From Bdellovibrionales bacterium (GTDB lineage Bacteria; Bdellovibrionota; Bdellovibrionia; Bdellovibrionales; JAUICD01): DNA of 64,000 nucleotides. The DNA is taken from assembly GCA_965203275.1 (NCBI GenBank), contig OZ241865.1, positions 2,503,811 to 2,567,810 of the forward strand, read 5' to 3'. A model generated the notes under the pieces. The model searched no databases and had not been told where the DNA came from. It saw only the letters and a program-made list of their open reading frames with translations. The position numbers and the translations under genes are program-made. Positions within the stretch are counted from its first letter, which is position 1, and every line of letters starts with the position of its first letter. Below, in pieces: positions 2,916 through 62,460 of this stretch.

Positions 2916-3422
2916 TTTCACTAAAAGTAAACTGACCTCTGGTCACTTTTGGACATTGCTCTGACAGCTTACGCTGTCTAAAAAGAGCAATGTCTCAAAA
3001 GTCCGTTTATTTTTAGTAGGAAGGATCCTTTCCTTTTTTAACACAATGTTAAGGAAAAAGTTCCTTCATCAAGGCTGGCTACCTCAAAAGTCTGTTTACT
3101 TTTAGTAAGGAGGATCTCCTCGTTTTTTGACTACATGTTAAGGAAAAAGTTCCTTTATCGTAAGTCGCTTGCTCTTGAGGCAATAAAAGAATTTTTCCTT
3201 AACATGCTGTAAAGGAATAAAGGGATCCTTCTCTACTAAAAGTGGTCAAGCTTTCTAGGCAATGACCATTTTGCCAATGGCGAAAGCCATCGTGGTCATC
3301 GCCAGAAAGTGACCAGAGGTCAGACCACTTTGAGTGAAACAGCTTAGCCTTTGATCGACGACGAAAGCCGTCGGGCTAACTGCCAGAAAACATGCCAGAG
3401 GCTAGACCACTTTTAGGGAAAC
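2916..3422. repeat. Structured interspersed repeat cluster 1 (4 full or partial units, both orientations)
   Basis: tcactaaaag...cc-tct-gg...ttttagt...atgttaaggaaa modules with central spacer gcttgctcttgaggcaataaaa. Confidence 0.95.
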
Positions 3423-4322
3423 AGCAAGTCCACAAAACAATCCAAAAGCAAAACCTCCTAGATGAACTGAGTATGCAATATAATTAAAACCGTTCAATGC
3501 ACTTAAATATCCTGACAGATCAATGATTAACCAAATACTTGCAACAAACCAAGTAGGCAAATAAACAGACCCCCACCATCGATGTAAAGGTAAAATAAAA
3601 AATAAAAAACGTAAGGGTTTTTTAAAATATAATAAAGAAAAAGCACCGACAAGAGCATTGATAGAGCCACTTGAACCTATCAAAGGAAAATATGAAAGCT
3701 CTGAAATTTGTATGTGAACAAAAGCTCCTACAGCTCCCCCTAACAAATATAATAACAAAAACAACTTATGACCTATTAAAGGTTCTAAAAAGCAACCAAA
3801 GATTAGCAAAAACCAACAATTAAAAAGCAAATGCCAAACATGTCCATGCACAAACTGATAACTTAAAAAATAAAATAATTCTTGATTGTAAATAGTCAAC
3901 CCTAATTTAAAACTCCAACTCTGATCTTGTTGCTTAAGGTACTTGTTTAACTGATCTTTCCAATAAGCAATCTCTACTTGATCTCCATCAAATGCTAATG
4001 ATCTTGTTTCTAAAAAAGTTGCATCTCGAAAAGCTAAACTTCCCAGTAAAAGATTTCTTTCCATATCACCTTCTGCGGATAAAGATGCCAAATCTGATAA
4101 AAAGTAACTGTATTGATCTTCATTATGTAAAATGTGTTGTGTGTATATCTTTCCTTGAGCTTTGATAAAAAATTCATCATCTAATAAATGTTTTCTAGCA
4201 TTGCTTTCCTGCACTTGCCCTGCTCGAAAGCAAACAAAAAACACAACATATAAAAAAACAAACAGCCAAGTCAAAGGTGCTTGTCTCAAAGACGATATGC
4301 CATGTAGGAAAGGTAAGATCAT
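3402..4322 (-). CDS. Rhomboid-family intramembrane serine protease
   Basis: HLLFN, GSSG catalytic Ser and VHLGG catalytic His motifs; last codons VSLKVV* come from the repeat. Confidence 0.9.
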   Translation of the reverse strand: MILPFLHGISSLRQAPLTWLFVFLYVVFFVCFRAGQVQESNARKHLLDDEFFIKAQGKIYTQHILHNEDQYSYFLSDLASLSAEGDMERNLLLGSLAFRDATFLETRSLAFDGDQVEIAYWKDQLNKYLKQQDQSWSFKLGLTIYNQELFYFLSYQFVHGHVWHLLFNCWFLLIFGCFLEPLIGHKLFLLLYLLGGAVGAFVHIQISELSYFPLIGSSGSINALVGAFSLLYFKKPLRFLFFILPLHRWWGSVYLPTWFVASIWLIIDLSGYLSALNGFNYIAYSVHLGGFAFGLFCGLAVSLKVV

Positions 4323-4361
4323 TCTTAAAAAACCTCATATATATTATTTTTGTCTATATAG

Positions 4362-61035: not shown

Positions 61036-62049
61036 TTAAACACGCCCTAGTATCTTAAGTAGGTCAACCATTCTGTGAGAAAAGCCAACTTCATTATCAT
61101 ACCAAGCTAGCACCTTGACCATACGATCTTGTATCAGCATTGTAGAAGGCAACTCCACAATAGCACTCGCTGTATGACCTAAATAATCTCTGCTGACAAG
61201 AGGTAGATTTTCTACAGCTAAAATACCTTTTAAATCACTATGGGCAGCTTTTTCAAATGCTTGGTTGATTGTTCTAATGGACGCGTTGTTTTTAAGATGA
61301 GCTACAAAATCCACTAAGCTAACATTAGGCGTAGGAACTCGTACTGAGATGCCGTCAATCTTACCTTTAAGATGAGGTAGAATTTTACCCACTGTTTGGG
61401 CAGCTCCTGTAGTGGTAGGGATAATAGACAAACTCGCTCCTCTTGCCCTCCGCAAATCTTTGTGATTACCATCCAACAATCTTTGGTCATTGGTGTAAGC
61501 ATGTACTGTGGTCATAAACCCTGAGGCCACTCCAAAGTTTCGATCTAAAACTTCAATAACAGGAGCTAAACAATTCGTTGTACAAGAAGCATTGCTCACC
61601 AAATGATGTTGTTGGGGATCGTATTGTGCATGATTGACTCCATAGCAAATAGTTATATCAGAACCTTTTGCTGGTGCAGAAATCAGCACTTTTTTCACCT
61701 GACCTTTGAGATGTTTTTGAAGGTCTGCTTTTGTTTTTAAAGCACCTGTACATTCTAAAACAAATTCAACACCCCATTGATCCCAAGGGATATCTGATGG
61801 ATTTCTTGTTTGTGATACAGGGATTTTTACGTCATTGATTATAAGATGCCCTGTATCACTTGAGACTTGTTGATTCCAAATGCCGTGTAAGGAATCATAC
61901 TTAAGCAAGTGGGCCATTGTCTGTGCATTAGCCCCATCATTGATTCCTGTAATACAAAAAGCTTCTTCTTTGGAATGAAAATTATGATCATAGATGGCTT
62001 TGAGAACCATCCGACCAATACGACCAAAGCCATTAATCCCTAAACGCAT
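61036..62049 (-). CDS. gap: Glyceraldehyde-3-phosphate dehydrogenase type I
   Basis: GINGFGRIGR, NASCTTNCLAP and WYDNE motifs. Confidence 0.97.
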   Translation of the reverse strand: MRLGINGFGRIGRMVLKAIYDHNFHSKEEAFCITGINDGANAQTMAHLLKYDSLHGIWNQQVSSDTGHLIINDVKIPVSQTRNPSDIPWDQWGVEFVLECTGALKTKADLQKHLKGQVKKVLISAPAKGSDITICYGVNHAQYDPQQHHLVSNASCTTNCLAPVIEVLDRNFGVASGFMTTVHAYTNDQRLLDGNHKDLRRARGASLSIIPTTTGAAQTVGKILPHLKGKIDGISVRVPTPNVSLVDFVAHLKNNASIRTINQAFEKAAHSDLKGILAVENLPLVSRDYLGHTASAIVELPSTMLIQDRMVKVLAWYDNEVGFSHRMVDLLKILGRV

Positions 62050-62121
62050 TTTGATAATATCCTTTTCTTAAAATAATTTAAGAGAACACTAAAAGACACT
62101 TTTAAACATGTCAAGACGTCT

Positions 62122-62460
62122 TTTTCACTAAAAGTGGTCTAGCCTCTGGCTACTTTCTGGCAATGACCGCAATGGCTTTCGCCATTGGCAAAATGGTCAT
62201 TGCCTAGAAAGCTTGACCACTTTTAGTAGGGAGGATCCCTTCGTCCCTTAACTCCATGTTAAGGAAAAAGCTTTTCATTTGTAAACCCGCTTGCTCTTAA
62301 GGTAATAAAAGCACTTTTTCCTTAACATGGTGTCAGAAGCAAGGAGATCCGCCCTACTCAAAATGAACAAGCTTTTGAGGTAGCCAGCTTTTTACGACGG
62401 CGGTAGCCGTCGGGCTGGCTACCCAAAAGTGGCCAGAGGCCAGTTCATTTTGAGTGAAAA
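62122..62460. mobile_element. MITE/REPIN-like composite: unit, spacer, inverted unit (cluster 14)
   Basis: The two arms are different sequence variants of the same fold. Confidence 0.8.

Follow-up and report, generated by a model that had tools for sequence, protein, structure and literature searches.

Structured intergenic repeats, such as repetitive extragenic palindromes (REPs), REP doublets forming hairpins (REPINs) and miniature inverted-repeat transposable elements (MITEs), are widespread, and in most lineages their movement and persistence are poorly understood. MITEs (for example, Correia/NEMIS) and modular repeats (pneumococcal BOX, enterobacterial ERIC) are non-coding, 100–400 bp long, intergenic, structured, modular or mosaic and sometimes nested. 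Derivatives of IS200/IS605 insertion sequences (ISs) need hairpins in single-stranded DNA (ssDNA), and have neither target duplications nor terminal inverted repeats. Features of these kinds recur in a family of about 150-nt repeat units found in a 64,000-nucleotide stretch (the window, whose numbering is used below) of contig OZ241865.1, Bdellovibrionales bacterium assembly GCA_965203275.1. The source genome (G000) is a single contig of 2,567,810 bp with 35% G+C. The units probably make up a family of selfish, non-autonomous intergenic DNA repeats specific to this lineage. In its behaviour the family resembles the selfish mobile REP/REPIN repeats and, its mover apart, is classed here as a new, unusually dense and complex form of REP/REPIN/MITE-like repeats.

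The closest known system is that of REP/REPIN and the REP-associated tyrosine transposase (RAYT; PMC3116915, PMC3337134). PMC3116915 describes extragenic, palindromic sequences of high copy number, tandem clusters, over-represented inverted doublets with a spacer, compensatory changes that keep the hairpins, no regular target duplication and vertical inheritance within a lineage; the present family shares all of these. Unlike the short single palindrome of that description, however, the unit is a three-way junction of about 150 nt followed by two hairpins, and the halves of its doublets do not pair with each other. Extragenic position, palindromy and compensation are thus common to both systems; the self-pairing doublet and RAYT are lacking here (G000 has no Y1 gene, and the sole Y1 gene of the congener G001, a public metagenome-assembled genome labelled Bdellovibrionales bacterium, is an unrelated IS200-like copy). 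The density, 6.9% of the genome, also sets the family apart.

The tail-to-tail doublet of units resembles a MITE with very long inverted ends. Unlike MITEs, single units lack terminal inverted repeats and share no ends with the resident IS256-like and IS4-like elements; many discrete versions exist of each of the four helices. No fixed-length duplication is seen, and only one insertion has a target duplication. Unlike IS200/IS605 derivatives, the family has no Y1 transposase in G000 and no fixed target tetranucleotide; the orientation bias of those elements relative to replication is not shown here, cumulative GC skew being too weak to define replichores.

The search profile was built from 28 complete copies of the window. 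With this profile, nhmmer found 56 full or partial matches in 15 clusters (2916–62496), close to the approximately 50 units in about 14 intergenic clusters counted in a first-pass annotation. Full units account for 30 matches, and all matches together cover 6,727 of 64,000 bases (10.5%). A direct-repeat scan of the window also gave abundant interlocking families of 45–300 nt, and 36 of the 41 occurrences of CCTCTGG/CCAGAGG lie inside units. The whole genome contains 1,420 matches (1,345 without opposite-strand shadow matches), 790 of them full length, which occupy 176,190 of 2,567,810 bases (6.9%). The units are restricted to intergenic DNA: 2.9% of the repeat bases fall within open reading frames (ORFs) of at least 110 aa. 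Units are present in 366 of 1,742 intergenic regions of G000 (convergent, 88/313; divergent, 88/313; same-direction, 190/1,116).

The unit extends over approximately 147–160 nt, from TCACT to ATGTTAAGGAAA; the "terminal gaaac" of the annotation is the reverse complement of its 5' GTTTC. For the 28 window copies, RNAalifold predicts a three-way junction and two small 3' hairpins, with 50 consensus pairs, 26 of which are changed on both sides. Helix P1 (13 bp) closes the junction. P2 is a hairpin of 5–6 bp with a TCT loop, and P3 is a long arm of 6 + 10 bp, split by one bulged T and capped by P4 (7 bp). A GGATC-centred region is located 3' of the junction and is followed by the TTAACA..TGTTAA hairpin. 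The unit of about 145 nt with a three-way junction that had been described earlier is accordingly right in its junction and too short in its extent, because the unit runs on through the GGATC and TTAACA..TGTTAA hairpins.

Stem positions are polymorphic, whereas loop and junction bases are nearly invariant. Watson–Crick pairing per position amounts to 91–100% in P1, 90–99% in P2 and 98–100% in P4. Among 748 distinct copies, base counts of the 5' and 3' arms mirror each other (for example, A475/C332 in column 13 versus T477/G320 in column 107), and the arm counts show that the stem versions listed from the window are common haplotypes genome-wide. The CC-TCT-GG core, which had been called invariant, is so in the 28 aligned window copies but not in G001, where the stem of the TCT hairpin varies with compensation (TGATC-TCT-GATCA, TGGCT-TCT-AGCCA); G001 copies carry new compensatory stem versions. 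The claim that a single bulged nucleotide is kept in P3 agrees with the larger sample: T is the majority base there in each of the 12 commonest P3 versions and is retained in G001.

The first-pass annotation had derived selection on a single-stranded structure from the extent of this covariation. Conservation of the fold through compensatory change is supported. In a test set of 50 copies from G000, G001 and one G001-like strain, 95.6% of the pair cells are paired versus 81.7% after shuffling (reached in 0 of 500 shuffles), double-sided changes occur at 32 of 50 pairs, and sliding the partners by 1–3 columns leaves only 31–50% pairing; this alignment, having been fitted to the model, leans towards structure. 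Of the 748 distinct units, 76.9% have a perfect P1, versus 13.2% for shuffled arms. Among units with an identical interior the values are 77.2% and 58.9±2.9% (0 of 300 shuffles).

The extent of covariation had been overestimated. Each helix exists as a handful of discrete versions, and much of the apparent covariation is a limited set of such versions reshuffled as blocks. In a permutation-corrected analysis of module association, paired arms are the tightest (P4 arms, 0.90; P2 arms, 0.85), the loop between the P4 arms reaching 0.37–0.38; the arms of P1, 75 nt apart, are associated at 0.66, versus 0.51 for the 5' arm of P1 with adjacent P2. Local hairpins travel as cassettes, and in one paralogous insertion P1 and P2 were kept and the P3/P4 cassette was exchanged. 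Since interior blocks are swapped in this way, cell counts overstate the number of independent compensatory events, which are far fewer. The family offers ready-made material for telling selection on DNA shape apart from pseudo-covariation produced by recombination.

Quasipalindromes are corrected by template switching within hairpins, according to the E. coli and T4 literature. The complementarity of the arms could be a by-product of such DNA mechanics rather than of selection on a functional fold: template switching in hairpins and block-wise conversion would keep the arms matched, and the units would multiply only via recombination, slippage and duplication of their surroundings. This reading is unlikely, although the mosaic copies, including the exchanged P3/P4 cassette, agree with it, as do the 11% of units with at most 10 of 13 P1 pairs, which fit chimeras. 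Variation of array copy number between near-identical strains, units flanking multi-copy gene cassettes, tandem neighbours that share P1 versions and the lack of a transposase (all considered below) point in the same direction. However, hairpin-templated correction should erase bulges and asymmetric loops, yet the bulged T and the internal loops persist in all versions, those of G001 included. Strong conservation of loop and junction bases contrasts with variable stems, and whole doublets and single units appear at new sites in genes and between strains, which is beyond local slippage. Persistence of the bulge and loops is not explained by block exchange or by hairpin-templated repair. The survival of asymmetric features (the bulged T, the internal loops) in every version, which argues that the shape itself is under selection, is taken here as the best evidence for such selection.

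The mobility of the units, which had also been supposed, is evident from insertions in paralogous genes and from presence or absence between close strains. In four paralogous Rpn-like genes a unit with its 3' tail occupies one site with a 7-bp duplication on its flanks, and the empty site is seen in intact paralogues that are 97–99.5% identical. This is the one event with target-site duplication. Five doublet events replaced target DNA without duplication: at four other Rpn-like loci a complete tail-to-tail doublet stands in place of 139–343 nt of the gene, and a doublet of the G001-like strain, absent in G001, replaces approximately 20 nt. Arrays also differ in copy number between the G001-like strain and G001 (3 against 4 units; 2 against 1). 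A fixed target tetranucleotide was not identified, and only a T-rich TTGTT is preferred before TCACT. The contigs of four DNA sequencing runs compared with 21000–29000 pile up or stop at the repeats, and none bridges an empty site; short-read assemblies are broken by repeats of this kind. These runs (X1, X3, X7 and X8) come from four studies, and their contigs represent this organism or closely related strains. No differences were seen in the unique parts for X1 and X3, the pieces of X7 and X8 have about 1–14 differences each, and X8 is labelled a sponge metagenome.

Adjacent full units form 57 tail-to-tail pairs versus 11 head-to-head pairs, and 43 of the 57 have a conserved spacer of 20–43 nt. 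The outer ends of the doublets are the TCACT ends, preceded by the T-rich TTGTT. Same-strand tandem pairs are joined within 2 nt in 48 of 155 cases. The genome also contains 32 nested cases of a few types and a cargo variant with a foreign insert of approximately 146 nt between P2 and P3 (13 copies, three of them in tandem at 48323–49236); the recurrence of such composites at many loci is a further sign of mobility. The inverted partners of a doublet are 68% identical, compared with 72% for random pairs, and none exceeds 95%. Only 1 of 41 doublets shares a P1 version (5.4 expected), and in 34 of them the partners have no version in common, whereas exact tandem neighbours share P1 in 26 of 59 cases (7.9 expected); P values for version sharing are nominal, the modules being correlated. 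Identity and version sharing being so low in doublets, each unit evidently folds on its own. The dissimilarity of inverted partners is as expected if long perfect palindromes are selected against; avoiding them may be one use for the diversity of versions.

The molecule that folds had been left as either RNA or ssDNA. Mobile DNA is better supported than an RNA gene, and the RNA side of the earlier proposal found no support in orientation, mismatches or folding of the two strands. The units could be genes or cis-elements for structured RNA (a small RNA, a stabiliser of mRNA ends or a bidirectional terminator), with selection acting on the folded RNA and their spread being secondary; this is improbable, although compensatory changes would conserve the fold in that case too, and the two 3' hairpins, with many G·U pairs, are predicted on the forward strand only. 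The units are enriched between convergent and divergent genes by the counts given above. Terminator-like combinations of P2 with a T-run, in both orientations, number 20 versus 5.3±2.3 in shuffled sequence (22000–29000), and this likeness may follow incidentally from the fold, or the host may make secondary use of it. Promoter-like sites, however, are not enriched (13 versus 16.4±3.6). The strands carry 694 (+) and 726 (−) matches without regional bias along the chromosome, and units between same-direction genes are co-oriented in 352 and anti-oriented in 407 cases. G·T and A·C mismatches of the junction helices are symmetric (P1, 91/111; P2, 35/28; P3a, 51/41; P4, 17/21), so wobble on one strand is not favoured. 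The same junction forms when the reverse complement is folded (−45.3 versus −48.9 kcal/mol for the forward strand); the difference arises because the two small 3' hairpins are predicted for the forward strand only.

The 1,420 copies, many of them truncated, nested or in broken genes, are also hard to fit to a gene family. As had been supposed, the unit belongs to no named Rfam family: Rfam 15 gave no match at gathering thresholds in the window, and the matches at E up to 5 in 22400–24500 were all far below gathering and mostly to precursor hairpins of plant or animal miRNAs.

For a selfish mobile DNA repeat the following course of events can be proposed. Propagation would require the unit to fold into the three-way junction and the two small hairpins, most likely in single-stranded or extruded (cruciform-like) DNA. 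We infer that a protein reads this DNA fold. The conserved loop and junction bases, the TCT loop and the bulged T probably form the recognition surface for such a trans-acting protein, and the stems would need only to pair; copies losing the fold would stop spreading. Judging from their anatomy, the units would spread singly, as exact head-to-tail arrays and as tail-to-tail doublets with TCACT outermost. Whole modules would be swapped by recombination or gene conversion, giving a mosaic of limited stem versions.

Several observations weigh against this explanation. Target-duplication matches at 121 isolated units are equal to the shuffled control, and a later excess of 7-mers (40 versus 20±3.7) comes mostly from tandem blocks. 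Truncated forms are common (5'-truncated at 267 and 3'-truncated at 117 of 471 same-strand junctions), so the unit ends are less sharply defined than those of a classical transposon. Even without selection, arms can stay together through module exchange, and conversion of interior patches would leave outer arms matched. The G·U-rich 3' hairpins, predicted only on the forward strand, hint weakly at strand specificity. Searches for mobilising enzymes in G000 were negative (Y1_Tnp, IS110 and RVT_1, 0 matches each), and the ends of the IS256-like (GAGCATGTCC...) and IS4-like (CCTGAGTTTGACAG...) elements are unrelated to TCACTAAAAGT or ATGTTAAGGAAA of the unit; this comparison is confined to these two resident elements, other IS families not having been searched exhaustively.

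RAYT/Y1 HUH, IS110 or reverse transcriptase genes had been suggested as the partners to look for near the units; profile searches found none of them in G000. PF01797 (Y1 HUH/RAYT) gave 0 matches there, its control matching in 6 of 14 genomes; the Y1 gene of G001 has its own flanking hairpins, and its 3.4-kb locus contains no unit. PF01548 (IS110 DEDD transposase) matched in neither genome. PF00078 (reverse transcriptase) gave 0 matches in G000 and 3 in G001, of which one, in a defence-like context, has a unit within 3 kb; these three genes are not associated with units. No match was obtained with PF04986 (IS91), which is uninformative, its control having matched in no genome. A single 29-bit match to PF07282 lies within a 1,365-aa frame, and two tyrosine recombinase genes are present. 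An autonomous copy, with 5' and 3' halves and matching P1 arms around an ORF, was not found; only the 146-nt cargo variant was. The IS256-like element is present in 9 copies with an 8-bp duplication and the IS4-like element in 3 copies in G000. G000 and G001 carry IS256-like or IS4-like elements with insertion polymorphisms.

The family is an extreme case among structured repeats, with 7% of a 2.6-Mb genome, four compensating helices, ordered arrays and doublets, and signs of recent mobility. As these signs occur without any known mover enzyme having been found, the family could lead to a new structure-reading enzyme. The mover may be a system of an unrecognised type that reads the three-way DNA junction instead of terminal sequences, with Rpn-like nucleases as candidates and the stem versions as incompatibility types that prevent pairing between neighbouring or inverted copies. 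This version of the mobile-DNA explanation is quite unlikely as a whole; the incompatibility part rests on the deficit of shared P1 versions in inverted partners reported above. If true, bacteria would possess a class of mobile DNA that depends on none of the HUH, DDE, IS110 and reverse-transcriptase enzymes, and a natural DNA partner would be proposed for Rpn proteins for the first time.

G000 has 45 ORFs of a family of Rpn-like PD-(D/E)XK nucleases, 19 of them intact and full length, with the catalytic motif and variable four-residue KGxE/EGRQ repeats that resemble those described for Rpn proteins. Eighteen loci of the family are broken, several of them by repeat units. Units lie within 300 nt on both sides of 51% of the 45 ORFs versus 2% of 1,473 others, and 9 of the 19 intact genes have units on both sides. 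The gene fragment of the window (Table 1), which has a 533-nt internal deletion relative to an intact paralogue and no Pfam match, exemplifies the dispensable paralogous genes flanked or disrupted by the repeat. It could be supposed that these nucleases themselves are the mover or recombination partner, cutting or resolving extruded three-way junctions and thereby driving the copying of units, the swapping of modules and insertions of the replacement type. Rpn proteins are DNA endonucleases, and the doublets that replace target DNA without duplication look more like break repair than transposition.

In PMC10400941, Rpn proteins are said to have been proposed as agents of horizontal transfer, and their genes to lack terminal repeats; the paper also reports a toxin–antitoxin role of these genes in phage defence, which speaks against a function in moving repeats. 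Four intact family genes (in G001 and on a contig of G004's own) have no unit within 3 kb, and G010, G011, G019, G022 and the true G004 carry the family without the repeat. Other multi-copy families are flanked as well (74–88% with a unit on at least one side), so the association may reflect a common tolerance of junk regions together with co-duplication. The Rpn-like family as mover is very doubtful and is kept only as a lead. An integron-like reading was dropped, as the units do not alternate with cassettes.

The repeat family was found only in this genus among the genomes examined. A covariance model detected it in G000 and G001 and not in G002, G003, the true G004 or 36 genomes of the same order. 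G004 was rejected as a third host: its 13 matches lie on three small contigs, C1, C4 and C11 (12,026, 15,070 and 52,545 bp; loci L122–L125 and L129), which are collinear with G001 at 82–94% identity, and C11 is only 66–68% identical to the true congener G003. By sequence comparison, these contigs are mis-binned from a G001-like organism, and the mis-binning may reflect breakage of the assembly by the repeats. They represent the G001-like strain that was compared with G001 above. When the 3' hairpin motif was sought in 185,579 species genomes, the loci outside G001, among the matches listed, were single matches; of 63 motif loci re-tested with the model none was real (best E 0.001). Three unit strings had no occurrence in the literature searched, and a word search for repeats of Bdellovibrionota symbionts returned nothing relevant. 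Genes of G000 and G001 are 67–77% identical in DNA, and the best repeat matches 84–85%. Genes that adjoin each other in the window have G001 orthologues separated by hundreds of kilobases, so that all synteny is lost, and the repeat family may help to explain this loss of gene order between two congeneric genomes.

The features of the window are collected in Table 1.

Table 1. Repeat units, helices of the representative unit and associated features in the window
Feature	Position	Strand	Remarks
Representative complete unit	24254..24403	+	Alignment, RNAalifold; 169.8-bit model match
5' leader of representative unit	24254-24260		TTGTTTC
P1 of representative unit	24261-24273		Pairs with 24349-24361
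P2 hairpin of representative unit	24274-24286		TCT loop
P3 of representative unit	24287-24302		Pairs with 24329-24345; bulged T 24339
P4 of representative unit	24304-24310		Pairs with 24315-24321; loop TTTC
GGATC-type region of representative unit	24362-24381		3' part
TTAACA..TGTTAA hairpin of representative unit	24382-24396		3' part
GGAAAAA of representative unit	24397-24403		3' part
Unit cluster, 4 matches	2916..3424	both	nhmmer and sequence read; 2916-3069 + full, 3071-3158 + 3' half, 3182-3342 - full, 3344-3424 - 5' half; two middle matches tail to tail around conserved ~23-nt spacer
Unit cluster, 4 matches, 2 full	7687..8247		Tail-to-tail arrangement at 7969-8247
Unit cluster, 4 same-strand matches, 3 full	11271..11900	-	One 3'-truncated, abutted by next unit
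Unit cluster, 4 matches	22514..23066		Downstream of Rpn-like gene fragment
Rpn-like gene fragment, 223 aa	23080..23751	-	Member of the 45-ORF Rpn-like family; units on both sides; not part of the repeat
Tail-to-tail doublet, two full units	23691..24068		23691-23846 +, 23904-24068 -
Unit cluster, 5 matches, 4 full	27960..28719		Includes tail-to-tail doublet 28361-28719
Unit cluster, 5 same-strand matches	38905..39421	+	Two 3'-truncated stubs, each abutted by intact 5' end of next unit
Unit cluster, 4 same-strand matches	41842..42406	-
Full unit, then three tandem ~300-bp variant copies	48086..49236	+
CCGGGAT-type heptamers, palindromic array	48240..48320		Abuts unit 3' end
Second palindromic CCGGGAT-type heptamer array	~49230-49330
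Unit cluster, 5 matches	52147..52583		One is an opposite-strand shadow match
Unit cluster, 3 matches, 1 full	58218..58613	-
Unit cluster, 4 matches, 2 full	58860..59438
Single full unit	60717..60876	+
Tail-to-tail doublet, two full units	62121..62496		62121-62278 +, 62303-62461 -; 24-nt gap

The CCGGGAT-type motif also trails many unit 3' ends across the genome.

Other repetitive sequences are present in the window. A 913-aa protein (8326–11067, minus strand) consists of tandem helix-turn-helix (HTH) repeats of approximately 68 aa (204-nt period in the DNA) and matches HTH domains of the transposase type. With 91 ORFs, the paralogue family to which it belongs is the largest of the genome; 31 matches to this family were obtained in G000 and a single weak one in G001, while 39 other relatives had none. 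This multi-HTH family was considered as a partner of the repeat and rejected, being essentially specific to G000 and not tracking the repeat. Three tandem paralogous ORFs of 390–413 aa (14892–18759, minus strand) have 83–89% DNA identity; Pfam gave no match for the one ORF checked. At least 12 tandem 15-nt repeats with a five-residue period are located at 32903–33157 (plus strand) in the ORF 32574–33590, and seven tandem 33-nt repeats, up to 100% identical, at 28933–29229 in the ORF 28817–29311 (minus strand).

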